Part shown: piece by piece, positions 814 through 49,580 of the stretch
Layout of the letters: each line of letters begins with the position of its first letter
How positions within the stretch are numbered: position 1 is the stretch's first letter
Assembly (NCBI GenBank): GCA_018674305.1
Contig: JABHAL010000004.1
Location: 446-64,445 of the forward strand
Direction of reading: 5' to 3'
Source: Candidatus Falkowbacteria bacterium
GTDB lineage: Bacteria > Patescibacteriota > Patescibacteriia > UBA11705 > JABHMO01
Length of the DNA stretch: 64,000 nucleotides
The notes under the pieces: model-generated
Database searches by the model: none
The model's input: only the letters and a program-made list of their open reading frames with translations
Told to the model about the DNA's origin: nothing
Translations under genes and position numbers: made by a program

Positions 814-920
814 TTTAAACAATTTAACAATCTGACAATTTACTATTCTATAGTATCATAATTAATCTGAAACTAAAACCATAACTGTTCGCTGAACAAT
901 AATCTGTAACTATAAAAAAA

Positions 921-954
921 TCCCCCGACAAACGTCGGGGGATTTTCTGCTTTT
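921..954. terminator. Intrinsic terminator hairpin (tcccccgacaaacgtcggggga) with flanking A/T runs. Bidirectional.
   Basis: Perfect 9-bp stem. It reads as hairpin plus T-run on the minus strand, downstream of gene 958..3252. Confidence 0.7.
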
Positions 955-957
955 CTA

Positions 958-3252
958 TTAAAACACTAATGTTCCAAAATATAAAGGAAAGTCATCATGC
1001 ACCAAAACATCCTCATTGGTCTCTACGTCCTTACCAACCACCATATAACTTGCTGGCATTGATAATTGTATAGTATCGTTAGTACTGGCAATGGTAGAAT
1101 CCGCATAAACATCAAAACTGTATGTTTGTCCTGCCGCTAAGTAATAATTGATGTTAGTTGTAAAAATTGACTTCAGGCTATTACTATAATATGTTGGCCA
1201 CATCACACCACTATTATTTGATAGTTCTATTCGCCAATCAACGAACTTAGATGGGACTGCAGAATTTACGTTAAAACCTAACTCCGAAAGCTCAACGTCC
1301 TTAGTTACCATAATATCAATAGTTGCTACTTTAAGACCTGTTGATGGTGTGGCTGTTCCTGTAGGTGAATTTGAACTAACGCTAACATAGATCCCTGCCT
1401 GTTCAACAACCTGTTCCACACACGCACCATTTACACAGGTTTTATTATTTGGACAAACCGTTCCTTCTGTTGAAATAGGTGGGGCTCCCGGGATTTGATT
1501 ATCTACTGCTATATATCCATCATTACAATAATATTCAATAACGTTCCCTGAACTAGTACAATAATCCTTCTTTGTTTCCCAACTACTATCATTCCAATTT
1601 ACACCTGTTGTTTCACCAGCTGACTCTAAATTAATTCCTCCGTCAGTGTCCTGACATTCTACTGCTGCACAACTTCCATCTTCATGACAAAATAACTGTG
1701 GTTCTCCACAAGCTACCCAAACTGCTCCTGGCTCAACTGGGTTACTACAATAACCATTACTATCACAAATTTCTTGTGTACATGGATTCATATCATTACA
1801 ATCATACTCATTTGTACACTTCACTATAGGACCATTCTGTCCCACACAAGAACCCTGACTACAAGCTGTTCCAGATGGACATTCAAAATAATGGCCATTA
1901 ACCCTGCCGTCAGGTAAACATTGTGATTCAACTACCCAGGCGCCAGTTTCAGTTTGTGCGCCGTTAACTTCTTCAGCGCAATAATCATCACTATAAACTA
2001 GCTGGCTAAAAGTATAATCCCAACCAAGAATAGTGGTAGATTGATAAATATCATTACCATCTGGATCATCACACATATCAGATAAAGCATCAGCTCCAGT
2101 AAATTCAGGGAAATCAATAGAGAAATCTCCAATAATATTTGCAGTTTCTAAAGAATTCAAGCTGTAAGCAACTACTGACTCCTCATCAATCATACTTAAC
2201 TGCAACTTCTGATTAACTCCTATCATCCCCTCTTTAATGAACACCACATACACACCTTTTTCAACTCCAGCTGGAAAAATATAATTATTACTAGATAAAT
2301 CAAAGCTAATTTGATCTGAACCACTGATTTGGCCTTGAACTAAGAAATCTCCGCTATCTTGATACAGTCTCCAATAAGCAGGTTTCATTATCAGTGGCCA
2401 ACCTTGTTTAATTTCAAAATTAAGTTGGTTAACCTTAATATCTTCATTTGCATTAAATTTTAATCTTGCAACAATATTCTTCTCCATATTCAAAGTACCA
2501 TTTGGCAAAGATGTATCTTGCTGTACACTTAATTCAGTACTTGCCAATACACACGCACCTTCTACACAAGAACCTGGACAATCATAACTATTCCAGCTTA
2601 CTTTACCGGTCTTTTCATTACAAAAATATTCTAATATTCTTCCCTCGTCCCAACATTTGTCATCCGCTTCATAAAACTCATCAGTTGTTGGGTGTAATCC
2701 TTTGATATGCCCCTTCATTCCTAAATTAGCAAATTTATAAGAATTAATAGGCAAACCAACATCATTTTTGTCAGTTACGTCACTATCAAGACAAGCGCCT
2801 TCTGTCTCACCTGGAATACCGACTCCGATTATTCTTTTCTTCAAAACTTTCCTGGCTCTACCCATTTTGTACCATGCTTTAAGTAAGGTTTTGTACCGCT
2901 TGGCATCCTTTGGTTTAAATACAACCGTAACTCGACAAGTTTCTTGTGGTCTCAGCTGAGACTTACAAGTTGTCTTATTTCTATCAAAGGTAAAACCGTT
3001 TGCCAATTTAGAAAAACTGAACTTGATAGTTCTACGTTTTTCAACATTTTTCACTACAAAAGTTTTACTAACTGAATCACCCACCATTACTGAACCGAGA
3101 TTCTCGGTCCCCATGTCAATAAATTGCAATCCAGTGTTAACTGCGTTATTCGCCATCATGGCGGCAGCAGCTACTGCAATAATTCCAGCAACTACAACCT
3201 TGGTGGTTGATTTAGTGCTAGTTTTACTTTGTGTTTGTGTCATTGTTTTCAT
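958..3252 (-). CDS. Large secreted/anchored surface protein. N-terminal TM/signal, conserved beta-sandwich-like N-module, then three Cys-rich repeat modules.
   Basis: 764 aa. N-terminal hydrophobic segment VVVAGIIAVAAAAMMA. The ~250-aa N-module is highly similar to the neighbouring gene. Repeated Cys-rich motifs end in G.CV. Confidence 0.6.
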   Translation of the reverse strand: MKTMTQTQSKTSTKSTTKVVVAGIIAVAAAAMMANNAVNTGLQFIDMGTENLGSVMVGDSVSKTFVVKNVEKRRTIKFSFSKLANGFTFDRNKTTCKSQLRPQETCRVTVVFKPKDAKRYKTLLKAWYKMGRARKVLKKRIIGVGIPGETEGACLDSDVTDKNDVGLPINSYKFANLGMKGHIKGLHPTTDEFYEADDKCWDEGRILEYFCNEKTGKVSWNSYDCPGSCVEGACVLASTELSVQQDTSLPNGTLNMEKNIVARLKFNANEDIKVNQLNFEIKQGWPLIMKPAYWRLYQDSGDFLVQGQISGSDQISFDLSSNNYIFPAGVEKGVYVVFIKEGMIGVNQKLQLSMIDEESVVAYSLNSLETANIIGDFSIDFPEFTGADALSDMCDDPDGNDIYQSTTILGWDYTFSQLVYSDDYCAEEVNGAQTETGAWVVESQCLPDGRVNGHYFECPSGTACSQGSCVGQNGPIVKCTNEYDCNDMNPCTQEICDSNGYCSNPVEPGAVWVACGEPQLFCHEDGSCAAVECQDTDGGINLESAGETTGVNWNDSSWETKKDYCTSSGNVIEYYCNDGYIAVDNQIPGAPPISTEGTVCPNNKTCVNGACVEQVVEQAGIYVSVSSNSPTGTATPSTGLKVATIDIMVTKDVELSELGFNVNSAVPSKFVDWRIELSNNSGVMWPTYYSNSLKSIFTTNINYYLAAGQTYSFDVYADSTIASTNDTIQLSMPASYMVVGKDVETNEDVLVHDDFPLYFGTLVF

Positions 3253-3261
3253 AATTTTAAA

Positions 3262-5310
3262 TTAATTTTGAGGGACACATTGCTTTAATGTATTATCCCA
3301 TAATATATTATTATTATTTTCTGTTTTACCGCAAAAACAACCAGCACCAAAAGCAATTTCTCCGAGACCGCTATATGAAATCAAATCTGGATTACACTCA
3401 CAACCGTTACTGGGATTATTATCAAAATCCATCCAACCATCACCACATTCCCACTGACACTGAAACTCATCCGCATATATTATACCATTATTGGTATTAT
3501 AACTGTAGTCTGGCTCTATATATGCTTTGATGTTTGGCTTGGTTAAACTAACTAACACTCTACAACCACTGACAATTGTATTTCCATTTAATTGAACTTT
3601 ATTCAGTCCAGAAATAGCATCTAAAACACTCACATCAGTTACTTGGTTATTTCTAAAATCAAGTTCTTTCAAATTAGACAAATTATCTAAACCTGACAAA
3701 TTATTAATATTATTATTTTCAGCCCAAAGCTTTTCTAGCTTAGTTATATTTTGAATCGGGCTTAAGGACTGAATTACATTATCTCCAATATCTAAATATT
3801 TAACATTAGTACTATTTTCTAAACCGACTAAACTACTAATAAAATTATTATTTAATCCCAACCTACCTTCTATTTTTGTTAAATTGGCTAAAGCAGAAAT
3901 ATTCTGGATATTATTATATCCCAGTCGGAGTGTTTTAAGTTCAGATAAATTGGTTAAAGCTGAAATGTCACTAATATTATTGTTTTCAGCATACAAAGCT
4001 ACAATATTAGTCAAGTTCGCCAAAGCAGAGAGATTACTAATACTGTTTTGACCAATGGTCAAAACCCACATATCTGGGAAATTTGCTAAAACTGAAATAT
4101 CAGAAAGACCGCTATTACTGGAAATATCTAACGTTTTTAATTTAATTAAATTTTCCAGTGAAGATATATCAACTACACTATTATTCGCTAAATAAAGTGA
4201 TTTCAAATTAATCAAGTTTTCCAATGGTTTAACATTAGTAATACCATTAAATCTCAAGTCAAGCGTTTCTAAATTGACTAAATTTGTCAGTGGCGCCAAA
4301 TCAAGATTAGTGATGTTGGAATTATAGCCGACCATACATAATTTTTTCAATTTAGACAAATACTCAAGACCACTTAAATTTGCCACCGGTTTATCCACCT
4401 TCGTGATAAAAGGTTGAGCAAAACAACCAGCTTGAATTAACTCTTCTATGTCCTGAACATCTGAAACTATGATATCTTCATCAAGTTTATCAATTTTTTG
4501 TCTTATAATTGTTTCTAAATTTTCATCTGGGAAAGTTATAACAGAATTTGGGTCTATAATTGGATCCGCCGCTGGAACCACTTCCGGCTCAACCGAAACC
4601 AATACACATCGCCCCTCTAAACAACTACCTGGACAATCATAACTGTTCCAACTAACTTTACCGGTATTTTCATTACAAAAATATTCCAATATGCGTCCTT
4701 CATTCCAACACTTATCATCAGCTTCATAAAACTCGTCCGTTGTCGGATGAATACCGCTAATATGTCCTCTTTTAGTCAGATTAGCAAATTTATATGTCTT
4801 GTATGGTAATCCCACATCATTTTTATCTTTTTCATCACTATCTATACAAGCCCGATCACTTTCTGCCGACATGCCAAAACCTACCAATCTTTTTCTTAGC
4901 GATTTTTTTGTTCTTCCTTTTCTGCTTATTACATTAAGTTCAGCTTTATACCTTTTAACTTCCTGTGGCTTGAAAACAACTGTAACCCTACAAGTTTCTC
5001 GTGGTTTCAAAACATGCTTACAAGTTGTCTTGTTAGTATTAATTGTGAAACCCTTAGCTAAACTTTTGATAGCAAAGTTAATAGGCTGTCGCTTTTCCAT
5101 GTTTTTTACCACAAAAGTTTTGCTAGCTAAATCACCAACCATAACAGTCCCAAATTTATATGTCCCACGATCAAGAAATTGCAAGCCTGTATTATTAGCT
5201 GCATTAACCCCAATCATTGCTGCTGCCACGGCTGCAATAATTCCTGCCACTACTACTTTAGTAACTGCCTTAGTATTGGTTTTTATCTCTGTTCGTGTCT
5301 TTGTTTGCAT
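3262..5310 (-). CDS. Large secreted/anchored surface protein. Same N-module as 958..3252, followed by ~15 leucine-rich repeats (internalin-like) and a Cys-rich C-terminus.
   Basis: Paralog of the upstream gene. LRR motifs L..L..L.L..N.I.D.S.L. Start chosen at MQTKTR with an AAGGA RBS. The 9-bp gap to the next gene suggests an operon. Confidence 0.65.
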   Translation of the reverse strand: MQTKTRTEIKTNTKAVTKVVVAGIIAAVAAAMIGVNAANNTGLQFLDRGTYKFGTVMVGDLASKTFVVKNMEKRQPINFAIKSLAKGFTINTNKTTCKHVLKPRETCRVTVVFKPQEVKRYKAELNVISRKGRTKKSLRKRLVGFGMSAESDRACIDSDEKDKNDVGLPYKTYKFANLTKRGHISGIHPTTDEFYEADDKCWNEGRILEYFCNENTGKVSWNSYDCPGSCLEGRCVLVSVEPEVVPAADPIIDPNSVITFPDENLETIIRQKIDKLDEDIIVSDVQDIEELIQAGCFAQPFITKVDKPVANLSGLEYLSKLKKLCMVGYNSNITNLDLAPLTNLVNLETLDLRFNGITNVKPLENLINLKSLYLANNSVVDISSLENLIKLKTLDISSNSGLSDISVLANFPDMWVLTIGQNSISNLSALANLTNIVALYAENNNISDISALTNLSELKTLRLGYNNIQNISALANLTKIEGRLGLNNNFISSLVGLENSTNVKYLDIGDNVIQSLSPIQNITKLEKLWAENNNINNLSGLDNLSNLKELDFRNNQVTDVSVLDAISGLNKVQLNGNTIVSGCRVLVSLTKPNIKAYIEPDYSYNTNNGIIYADEFQCQWECGDGWMDFDNNPSNGCECNPDLISYSGLGEIAFGAGCFCGKTENNNNILWDNTLKQCVPQN

Positions 5311-5399
5311 AAAACTATCCTTAATAAACAATAAATGTTAAACCATAAACTAATTTATTAAGTTTTAAATTATATATTTATTTTTACTTTAACAAATTA

Positions 5400-6444: not shown

Positions 6445-7773
6445 TTATCTTTTTCTCCTATTACTTTTAATTATATAAAACAAAATCAAATACATCACAA
6501 CCATCACCCACCAGCTAATATTAACTTCCACTGACGCCCATTTAAATGCTGAAAATATTTCGACTACTTTGATTACATACCCCAAGACCAACCACGAGAA
6601 CCAACCAATTATTTGACCAAGAAACAAATATACAGATGAAGAGATAAACTGCAAAAAACCAACTAACATAGCGATTGGAATCACTGGCAAAACCAACAGA
6701 TTAACAACTGGTGCCACAATTGAAAGTCGGCCGAACTGAAATAGGATTAACGGTAGAGTAAAAATTATTGCGGATAACGTTGAAGTTAAATTTTCCTGCA
6801 AACCAAATTTCCTTGGCACCCATTTAAATCCTTTAATCAACTTTGGAGATAAATAAACTAAACCTATTGTTGCCAAAAATGAGAGCTGAAAACCAGCATC
6901 CCAAATCAAAATTTTTGGATTAAACAATGCCATCACTACGGCTGACAAAATTAAAACATTACTTACCTTACTTTTTCTGCCTAAATGTTTAGCCAACAAA
7001 ACTATACTACCCATTATAGCGGCCCGAATCACCGACGCGCTGGCACCAGTTAAAATCACAAAGAAAAATAACGCAATTAATATCCCCCATATTGATTTTT
7101 TGCGATTAATTGAAAGTGAAGTGAAAAAATTCAAAAGTAAAATCACGATAATCGTAATATTATAACCAGAAATAGCGATAATATGCGTTATCCCGGTAAC
7201 ATTGAACTTATTTAACAGATCCTGCGGGATCCCCTGTCGTGCCCCCACCAATATCCCACCAACTAAAGCTGCTTGCGGTTCCGCCACTGTACGATTAATT
7301 TTTGTTTGCATCAGCCACTTTAACTTGAGTATGCCGGCAATAAGGATATTGCCGCTTCCGGTTCGTAATGAACGGATTTGTGGCTGATAACACACTGAAT
7401 AAATTCCGTAACGTGCCAAATATCTATCATATTTAAAATTCTCAATTTGCTCGGGAGTTTGCAATTTACATTTAACTTCCAATAAATCACCATATTCAAA
7501 CTCTGGATATAATTGAGTCCGAAGCAAAACTTTTCCTCTAAGTTCTGTCGGTTTAACGGTTAGCTTCTGGTGATCCAATCGAACATCCGGCTCTGTGGAA
7601 ATCACAGCCTGAAAAGTCATCTGTTTATTATTATAAAAAGAAATATGTTTTTCATTAAACTTGGGAGAATAAAATATCGCCCAACTCAATTGAAACAGTA
7701 GGATAACAAAACAAATCAGGAAAAACTTTTGCGACTTTTTAAGTTTCATAAATTCATTATAACAAAAAAGCAC
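6445..7773 (-). CDS. comEC: ComEC/Rec2-family DNA internalization channel (DUF4131 plus competence domain, no beta-lactamase domain)
   Basis: 442 aa. N-terminal TM plus OB-like region, polytopic membrane core with an IIAISGYNI motif. Confidence 0.65.
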   Translation of the reverse strand: MLFCYNEFMKLKKSQKFFLICFVILLFQLSWAIFYSPKFNEKHISFYNNKQMTFQAVISTEPDVRLDHQKLTVKPTELRGKVLLRTQLYPEFEYGDLLEVKCKLQTPEQIENFKYDRYLARYGIYSVCYQPQIRSLRTGSGNILIAGILKLKWLMQTKINRTVAEPQAALVGGILVGARQGIPQDLLNKFNVTGITHIIAISGYNITIIVILLLNFFTSLSINRKKSIWGILIALFFFVILTGASASVIRAAIMGSIVLLAKHLGRKSKVSNVLILSAVVMALFNPKILIWDAGFQLSFLATIGLVYLSPKLIKGFKWVPRKFGLQENLTSTLSAIIFTLPLILFQFGRLSIVAPVVNLLVLPVIPIAMLVGFLQFISSSVYLFLGQIIGWFSWLVLGYVIKVVEIFSAFKWASVEVNISWWVMVVMYLILFYIIKSNRRKR

Positions 7774-37024: not shown

Positions 37025-37101
37025 TGGTGGACCCGGCAGGGATCGAACCTGTGACCTCCTCGGTGCAAGCGAGGCGCTCTAGCCAACTGAGCTACGGGCC
37101 C
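37025..37101 (-). tRNA. tRNA-Ala (anticodon UGC)
   Basis: A hand-folded cloverleaf gives the anticodon loop CTTGCAC, a G3:U70 pair and a GTTCGATCC T-loop. CCA is encoded. Confidence 0.85.
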
Positions 37102-43963: not shown

Positions 43964-44074
43964 GTCCTGGCGACGACCTACTTTCCCACTGTGTAGTATC
44001 ATCGGCGCTACAGGGCTTAACTGCTGTGTTCGGGATGGGAACAGGTGTGGCCCCTGCGCTAGAGTCACCAGGAC
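43964..44074 (-). rRNA. rrf: 5S ribosomal RNA
   Basis: The reverse complement matches 5S conserved blocks (CCTGGCGAC...CATCGGCGCTAC...TTCGGGATGGGAACAGGTG). A flanking processing stem cagagacatagtcctgg / ccaggactatgtctctg is present. Confidence 0.85.
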
Positions 44075-44159
44075 TATGTCTCTGTTTAAATAGAATATTT
44101 GATTCAAGTATAATAATTACAATTTGTAATCCGAAAATGTGAATATTAACATTATAGTG

Positions 44160-47140
<2,981 letters not shown>

Positions 47141-49495: not shown

Positions 49496-49580
49496 TGGTG
49501 GGCGGGAAAGGACTTGAACCTTCACGGCCGAAGCCACCAGTTCCTAAGACTGGCGTGTCTACCAATTTCACCACCCGCCC
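49496..49580 (-). tRNA. tRNA-Leu (anticodon UAG)
   Basis: A hand fold gives acceptor GGGCGGG/CCCGCCC, anticodon loop CTTAGGA, a long variable arm and encoded CCA. Confidence 0.8.

Follow-up and report, generated by a model that had tools for sequence, protein, structure and literature searches.

Partner-cell recognition and attachment in the Patescibacteria, or candidate phyla radiation (CPR), are largely unknown, and most of the candidate proteins are unannotated. CPR Peribacteria encode large cysteine-rich extracellular proteins for which a role in attachment has been proposed and which are reported to be strain-variable (Anantharaman et al. 2016, PMC4736985), and CPR bacteria have also been reported to possess extracytoplasmic disulfide machinery of the MdbA/VKOR type (bioRxiv 10.1101/335083). 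The class-1 internalins of Listeria (InlA, InlH/InlC2) carry tandem 22-residue leucine-rich repeats (LRRs) together with an N-terminal cap (NF033188/NF033189). LRR solenoids are typically protein-binding modules, and those of the internalin type bind protein ligands on other cells. Here we describe two adjacent genes, A and B, at positions 958-5310 of a 64-kb stretch of DNA from a Candidatus Falkowbacteria bacterium (contig JABHAL010000004.1; the whole stretch is called the window below). The locus is a compact candidate pair with one defined stalk and two predicted binding heads, one of which is an internalin-type LRR.

Protein B resembles the Listeria class-1 internalins (PDB 4fmz, 2omt, 1o6s) over residues ~255-590, where a cap and 12 LRRs give E-values of 3e-50 to 5e-47, and it combines the tandem 22-residue repeats with the N-terminal cap as those proteins do. 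However, its whole-protein scores are far under the family cutoffs (169.3 vs 1050 bits for InlH and 118.5 vs 1600 bits for InlA), it lacks an LPxTG or GW anchor and has its putative anchor at the N-terminus instead, and no inter-repeat immunoglobulin (Ig) domain of the internalin kind was detected in it. Its LRR part also sits after a stalk of an Ig-like and a six-cysteine domain, ends in a Cys-rich tail and occurs in a CPR bacterium. B is internalin-like in its LRR head, yet by cutoffs, LPxTG and inter-repeat domain it is not a class-1 internalin. The Peribacteria proteins are similar to A and B by description (a small CPR genome, predicted export, richness in cysteine and no functional annotation), with no sequence relationship seen: they measure ~1,655 amino acids (aa) with ~7% Cys and form a strain-variable 14-gene array, whereas A and B are smaller, contain 3.7% and 2.6% Cys, respectively, and belong to a locus that is invariant across assemblies. 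Our search of the literature on LRR surface proteins of Patescibacteria and on surface proteins of Falkowbacteria found nothing relevant. PHROGs and PADLOC assigned A and B to no phage or defence family beyond a generic LRR phrog, so that a tail-fibre or defence reading was dropped.

The general kind is a familiar one, namely anchored, modular surface proteins shaped by duplication and domain replacement, and it includes one small domain that is possibly new. The value of the locus is that of a lead for the cell-contact biology of CPR bacteria rather than a surprise, and it is not the hypervariable locus that a previous reading made from the sequence alone (the sequence-only reading) had proposed.

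A shared N-terminal module with unlike distal parts

The two minus-strand genes are arranged as first read, with open reading frames (ORFs) at 958-3252 and 3262-5331 and a 9-bp gap (3253-3261) between the stop of B and the start of A (Table 1). Protein A is 100% identical to P0001, the NCBI 'hypothetical protein HOM83_02860, Candidatus Falkowbacteria bacterium', whose gene call begins at Met4 (761 aa). The source is therefore a CPR/Patescibacteria genome, in line with the small-genome, possibly episymbiotic bacterium suggested before. The ORF of gene B extends to a TTG at 5331, which would add 7 codons, but the ATG at 5310 is the likely start because it has AAGGA 8 nt upstream, aligns with the start of A and is also the start in the public gene calls (same position in 8 public assemblies). 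Protein B differs from the JGI protein P0003 by one residue.

B and A would form a two-gene operon and be co-transcribed, since a terminator was found only after A and the intergenic gap is 9 bp; a terminator scan between B and A found none. Translation of A is possibly coupled to that of B, as A has no Shine-Dalgarno sequence. A hairpin stands at the same position after P0002, the ortholog of A, in L001, the closest relative.

Over residues 1-244, A and B are 66% identical (79% positives; BLASTP E 2e-102), and the shared part is ~71% identical as DNA. The paralogy of this N-terminal module is real and far beyond chance, although the module is not near-identical over ~250 aa as first described, near-identity being confined to ~50 residues (HPTTDEFYEADDKCW..GSC). 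Beyond this, BLASTP gave a single weak match (A 541-617 vs B 177-241, E 2e-4), which corresponds to the third six-cysteine copy of A, and the C-terminal parts are non-homologous. The claim that the proteins diverge completely after the module was nevertheless slightly overstated, since a motif of the B tail recurs after the shared module in relatives. The module comprises three parts, namely a K/T-rich tail with an Ala-rich helix, an Ig-like domain and a six-cysteine domain; it is not an intracellular enzyme domain, since a hydrophobic anchor is followed in it by an Ig-like ASH/HYDIN/VesB domain and a Cys domain of the disulfide type.

Both N-termini consist of a Lys/Thr/Ser/Gln-rich tail with 4-5 Lys/Arg in the first 18 residues, followed by a 16-17-residue segment rich in Ala, Val and Ile (consensus VVVAGIIA(V/A)(A/V)AAAM), which agrees with the S/T/K-rich start and hydrophobic anchor noted before and with the basic region and hydrophobic helix of exported or membrane-anchored proteins. 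Among the ORFs of the window, A and B alone begin in this way. Neither protein contains an LP.[TSA][GAN] motif or a C-terminal hydrophobic segment. A and B most likely stay membrane-anchored with the N-terminus inside, because the tail and helix are the most conserved segment (95% identity between A and P0002) and recur before six-cysteine domains in unrelated proteins, and because the family alignment shows no AxA-type cleavage site common to its members. A type IV pilin-like N-terminus was rejected, as no G/FTLIE-type motif is present.

An N-terminal motif of the approximate form T-x-V-K-T-K-x-V-S-K-T-A-[ML]-A-[IV]-A-x-A-F-L-G-x-x-A-I-A-A precedes the six-cysteine domain in several otherwise unlike proteins (P0060, P0085, P0091, P0093, P0115, P0132, P0136 and the product of L018 3767-5137, from Magasanikbacteria, the sole named source). 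It aligns with the N-termini of A and B independently of the Cys domain, and it may serve for anchoring or sorting as a signal peculiar to the lineage.

Residues ~40-148 of both proteins match models of the ASH/HYDIN-VesB-CFA65/Cep192_D4 type (PapD-like beta-sandwich). In B, four Pfam models scored above their gathering cutoffs (PF22073, 42.2 bits against 35.5; PF22544, 30.7 against 25.5; PF15780, 30.3 against 27; PF24798, 29.9 against 28), and in A the same models fell just below (PF22544 23.7, PF15780 21.6, PF22073 33.1 vs 35.5, PF24798 25.7). The choice-of-anchor D model (NCBIfam NF012200, cutoff 45 bits) was not reached by either protein (A 30.5 and B 36.8 bits). Judging from these profile matches, the Ig-like domain belongs to the ASH/HYDIN-VesB group. 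When 1.84 billion representative proteins were searched exhaustively with a profile, the Ig-like part proved to be a common repeat, carried by hundreds of very large proteins; unlike the ASH/HYDIN-VesB and choice-of-anchor D proteins, A and B have a single copy placed directly after the membrane helix.

The six-cysteine domain, of which B has one copy and A three, is defined here by an alignment of 20 copies (A2). It spans ~85 residues with invariant C6, D8, D10, D50, C52, E60, C63, C77, C81, G84 and C86, and its model is confident (predicted local distance difference test, pLDDT, 90), with no Pfam match and no PDB relative. A relation to Sushi/factor H domains was dismissed, as the PDB profile search with the six-cysteine alignment supported it only at chance level (E 0.21). 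Three G.CV-terminated Cys repeats had been placed after the module in A; all three exist, but the first lies inside the shared module. In the same exhaustive search the domain occurred by itself in small proteins, and elsewhere it stood directly behind a similar T/K-rich and Ala-rich anchor and ahead of CARDB, beta-sandwich or pectate-lyase-like beta-helix modules, which are typical extracytoplasmic modules. Both proteins have an even number of cysteines (A 28, B 18), placed in conserved six-cysteine patterns, which would fit complete pairing in disulfides on the extracytoplasmic side. Neither the domain nor its arrangement behind the anchor is described in the libraries searched, and with a confident model and no Pfam entry or solved structural relative the domain is possibly a new family.

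Beyond the module, the distal part of A has two beta-sandwich domains and an 8-Cys segment that were absent from the earlier account, interleaved with the second and third six-cysteine copies. The first beta-sandwich is weakly similar to residues 630-759, in the C-terminal one (25% identity, E 0.006), and the latter is homologous to the terminal domains of the related proteins P0004 and P0005 (BLASTP E ~3e-6). The beta-sandwich assignment, drawn from secondary structure and these weak similarities, is tentative.

The distal part of B is dominated by its LRRs, which are internalin-like as first read, but they number 12 of 22-23 residues plus a cap and not ~15. A cap-like FPDENLETIIRQKI segment precedes them. 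The NCBIfam internalin_A match spans residues 310-592 and that of inl_like_NEAT_1 residues 313-521, while the best PDB match, the internalin 4fmz, starts at residue 310 (E 2.8e-50; InlA 5e-47). When a donor of the LRR part was sought, the matches were generic LRR proteins only, at most 46% identical and scattered across many phyla, and the fusion of the anchor-stalk with an LRR is known only from this lineage. We also observed the motif C-x-W-E-C-x3-W-x9-N-G-C-E-C-N at residues 618-640 of B (~3391-3459) and, in relatives, immediately behind the shared module (P0004 residues 256-280); it does not occur in A.

Table 1. Coordinates of genes A and B, their domains and flanking signals in the window (bS, beta-sandwich; 6Cys, six-cysteine domain; 8Cys, 8-Cys segment; KD, Kyte-Doolittle hydropathy; RBS, ribosome-binding site).
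Feature	Residues	Positions	Strand	Remarks
Intrinsic terminator, GC-rich hairpin with T-runs on both sides		917..946	.	Directly after gene A
Gene A	764 aa	958..3252	-	anchor-Ig-6Cys-bS-6Cys-8Cys-6Cys-bS; from ORF list
A, C-terminal beta-sandwich	614-764	961..1413	-	Terminal domain type of the family; 23% identity to P0002
A, six-cysteine domain copy 3	531-613	1414..1662	-	BLASTP vs B Cys domain E 2e-4; in A2
A, 8-Cys segment	473-530	1663..1836	-	Cys positions 479-528; 79% identical to P0002
A, six-cysteine domain copy 2, divergent	389-472	1837..2088	-	Aligned in A2; all invariant Cys/Asp/Glu present
A, beta-sandwich domain 1, fast-diverging	239-388	2089..2538	-	All-beta in model; 40% identity to ortholog
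A, six-cysteine domain copy 1	149-238	2539..2808	-	Within shared module
A, Ig-like ASH/HYDIN/VesB domain	40-148	2809..3135	-	Homologous to B domain; Pfam just under cutoffs
A, K/T-rich tail and Ala-rich hydrophobic helix	1-39	3136..3252	-	KD 2.25 over 17 aa; 95% identity to ortholog P0002
B-A spacer, 9 bp		3253..3261	-	No terminator, no Shine-Dalgarno
Gene B	682 aa	3262..5310	-	anchor-Ig-6Cys-LRR
B, 92-residue Cys-rich tail with CQWECGDGWMDFDNNPSNGCECN	591-682	3265..3540	-	Motif matches P0004 residues 256-280, E 2e-6
B, 12 leucine-rich repeats of 22-23 residues	323-590	3541..4344	-	Pfam LRR_4 E 7e-33, 8 stretches; repeat register
B, linker and internalin-type LRR cap (ITFPDENLETIIRQKI...)	240-322	4345..4593	-	NCBIfam and PDB internalin matches
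B, six-cysteine domain, C..D.D...D.C...E..C...C...C..G.C	150-239	4594..4863	-	Alignment A2
B, Ig-like ASH/HYDIN/VesB/Cep192_D4 domain	41-149	4864..5190	-	Four Pfam models above cutoff
B, K/T-rich tail and Ala-rich hydrophobic helix (signal-anchor or long signal peptide)	1-40	5191..5310	-	KD 2.73 over 17 aa, basic residues ahead; motif kept in relatives
AT-rich 89-bp region upstream of B, probable promoter/RBS region		5311..5399	-	AAGGA 8 nt before ATG; weak promoter-like match

Relatives, synteny and age of the duplication

With nothing but the 239-aa shared module as query, a word-indexed protein search gave no match, but the full-length query recovered the family, so the former result is a sensitivity artefact and not an absence. 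The members found in this way were P0002 (69% identical to A), P0004 (Kuenenbacteria HQ571_06745) and P0005-P0009, which come from Falkowbacteria RIFOXYC2_FULL_48_21 and relatives (with A2482_03370 of that genome among P0005-P0008); all are annotated as 'hypothetical protein'. Genome and metagenome scans added the locus L016, Magasanikbacteria proteins with the anchor and six-cysteine domain and without the Ig domain, and few further loci. Overall, the family was found at 4 species representatives or genome loci and 8 metagenome loci among the GTDB representatives and JGI metagenomes, counts that are a lower bound, the narrower alignment A4 using strict motif patterns.

The syntenic relatives (P0002, P0004, P0005-P0008 and L016) share the anchor-Ig-six-cysteine module at 41-86% identity, together with further six-cysteine copies and a terminal beta-sandwich. 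Unlike the locus described here, none of them has an LRR part and none is tandem-duplicated, and every related locus examined has exactly one family member. Their distal sets vary and include from one to three beta-sandwiches, additional Cys modules, a CxWEC...NGCEC motif and, in L016, CARDB. The conserved neighbourhood in relatives is ComEC-N, HD and/or NYN, then the family gene, an MBL-fold gene and NDK/NUDIX; the order in the window is PNP_UDP, ComEC-N, HD, B, A, NYN. L001 has HD, a 31-bp spacer, P0002 and NYN. As this HD-P0002-NYN order corresponds to HD-B-A-NYN in the window, B is the extra gene, and it occurs only in this lineage. A is orthologous to a small family, single-copy and syntenic, that is shared by Falkowbacteria, Kuenenbacteria and related lineages.

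L016 (CAZPYM010000003.1) is a 172-kb contig of a metagenome-assembled genome titled 'uncultured Gammaproteobacteria bacterium'. It holds a CPR-type locus with ComEC-N, HD, NYN, a family protein (791 aa, with CARDB) and MBL, and is 67% identical to the six-cysteine domain of the window. Its Gammaproteobacteria label or binning is probably wrong.

The tree built from the shared module places B as sister of the pair formed by A and P0002, with identities of 86% (A and P0002), 67% (A and B) and 65% (B and P0002). Synonymous sites are saturated between A and B (pS 0.72), with dN/dS ~0.1 in every segment, and dS between A and P0002 is ~1. The duplication is old, and purifying selection acts on both module copies. 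Probably the two genes were already separate when the L001 lineage split off, in which case that lineage would have lost B; another explanation is a faster evolution of B. A and B show no recent gene conversion, as even their closest 120 nt are ~85% identical and pS reaches 0.62 over the Cys-domain segment of residues 186-240.

Divergence between A and P0002 is uneven. The anchor is 95% identical, the Ig domain 83%, the three six-cysteine copies 86%, 80% and 80% and the 8-Cys segment 79%, with dN/dS of 0.06-0.18 in these framework domains. In contrast, the first beta-sandwich retains 40% identity (dN 0.54) and the C-terminal region 23%, with large indels. The family is thus built of a conserved framework and distal modules that change rapidly on an evolutionary time scale, and this contrast marks the beta-sandwich modules as the likely seat of specificity. 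A constant scaffold with swapped adhesive modules, as the sequence-only reading had it, holds between species, where the distal part is a beta-sandwich, CARDB or LRR, but no swapping was seen within the population.

Proposed role and competing explanations

We consider it reasonably likely that B and A are an operon for type-II-like membrane-anchored (or Sec-exported), disulfide-stabilised, adhesin-like surface proteins of the Falkowbacteria cell. Both proteins would be exported or inserted through the K/T-rich cytoplasmic tail and the single Ala-rich helix, and the Ig-like ASH/VesB-type and six-cysteine domains would form a membrane-proximal, disulfide-stabilised stalk. This stalk would present a distal ligand-binding part, which in A would consist of the beta-sandwich modules interleaved with more Cys domains and in B of the internalin-type LRR solenoid with its Cys-rich cap. 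A would be the ancestral gene, and B would have arisen from an old tandem duplication of the 5' third of A that was joined to an LRR-encoding sequence, so that the lineage would have two binding specificities on one kind of stalk. We infer an adhesin or receptor-binding role, towards a host cell or another ligand, possibly in contact with a host or partner cell as proposed for the Peribacteria Cys-rich proteins (PMC4736985).

Several observations weigh against this account. The hydrophobic stretch is short for a membrane-spanning helix and could be a cleaved signal peptide, the operon reading comes from spacing and terminators, and no donor of the LRR part of B was found. The full-length AlphaFold2 model of A (9-sequence alignment) is poor (pLDDT 43) and unusable for fold searches, the Ig domain being its sole well-modelled stretch (pLDDT ~80). 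Finally, the synteny of A across genera would be as much in keeping with a housekeeping role in the envelope as with attachment to a host. Structural cell-envelope proteins of this kind, such as a wall or S-layer-like scaffold or spacers with no specific host ligand, seem to us unlikely. The single-copy, syntenic ortholog of A in Falkowbacteria and Kuenenbacteria and the strong purifying selection on the framework would fit such a role, as would domains that are all of beta-rich Ig, CARDB or sandwich types common in envelope proteins. However, the beta-sandwich diverges far faster than the framework (23-40% vs 79-95% identity), the domain set differs between species, B carries a solenoid of a typically protein-binding type, and the family is rare as judged with the motif patterns used. 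Uneven divergence, varying domain sets and the LRR therefore fit ligand binding better than a uniform lattice. Release instead of anchoring, with a long Gram-positive-type signal peptide cleaved to yield soluble binding proteins, is unlikely: the long charged n-region and the hydrophobic region followed by small and polar residues (AMMANNAV) do resemble Gram-positive signal peptides, but the family lacks a conserved AxA-type site, such conservation and recurrence of tail and helix would be unusual for a disposable signal peptide, and no alternative anchor such as LPxTG is present.

A phase- or antigen-variable locus, in which the shared 5' module would serve as recombination substrate and C-terminal cassettes would be switched within populations, was the proposal of the sequence-only reading and is very improbable. 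Two genes with a common 5' module and different 3' parts, distal modules that differ between species and the reported strain variability of the Peribacteria proteins (PMC4736985) would suit it. A comparison across assemblies, which the same reading had called for, shows otherwise: the locus was found in 8 other public assemblies (NCBI, ENA, Logan and JGI; possibly from non-independent sites), 7 of which are 100% identical over 4.4-9.0 kb, and the eighth (JGI contig L007) has 1 single-nucleotide polymorphism in 7,973 bp. In addition, DNA that is only ~71% identical and saturated at synonymous sites argues against recent gene conversion. The 64-kb window holds no silent cassettes, template/variable repeat pairs, further copies or fragments of A or B, its sole repeat being the 71%-identical 5' module, and neither long inverted repeats at the locus nor simple-sequence tracts in or before the genes were found. 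For the population sampled, these results largely refute antigenic or phase variation. An accessory surface component of a DNA-uptake or nucleotide-salvage apparatus, tethering DNA or a donor cell for ComEC-mediated uptake, is also quite improbable, although the relatives keep the order ComEC-N ... NYN ... family gene ... MBL (matching the ComEC C-terminus) ... NDK/NUDIX and the window a comparable one. Against it, Pfam and NCBIfam scans found no DNA-binding domain (e.g. HhH) in A or B, the intervening genes and strands vary between genomes, the window has no MBL gene, and synteny among related small genomes may be inherited and not functional.

A broader idea, which we hold to be doubtful at best, is that the K/T tail, Ala helix and six-cysteine domain are a CPR-specific display module with an undescribed disulfide-rich fold, on which LRR, CARDB, beta-sandwich or beta-helix parts are interchangeable and which is possibly tied to the split-ComEC and nucleotide-salvage neighbourhood. 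If it were true, A and B would act as receptors for cell contact or DNA capture and thereby supply an episymbiont that has no nucleotide synthesis.

Further observations in the window

B and P0003 differ by Ser378Ile, which falls within one of the LRRs (codon 378 of B, window positions 4177-4179); this change is consistent with the L007 mismatch.

Between the terminator of A and the start of the NYN gene (ATG at 720, minus strand), positions 723-842 contain tandem octamer repeats, with five copies of GTTATATT, two of GCTATATT and three of AACAATTT. They are absent from the matching spacer in L001.

ComEC is split in these genomes (6445-7773 of the window, minus strand; L016 640-1944 and 6111-7118). 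A 434-aa protein has the N-terminal and competence parts only (TIGR00360, 104 bits), whereas the C-terminal end of the ComEC_Rec2 model is matched by another protein, a signal-anchored one of 335 aa with an MBL fold, for which the window has no gene. In relatives the family gene lies between the ComEC halves, among NYN, HD, NDK, NUDIX and PNP genes.

Finally, 23S and 5S rRNA genes lie at 43965-47140 (minus strand), with no 16S gene anywhere in the 64 kb, and the window has two tRNA genes only, Ala-TGC at 37025-37101 and Leu-TAG at 49496-49580.

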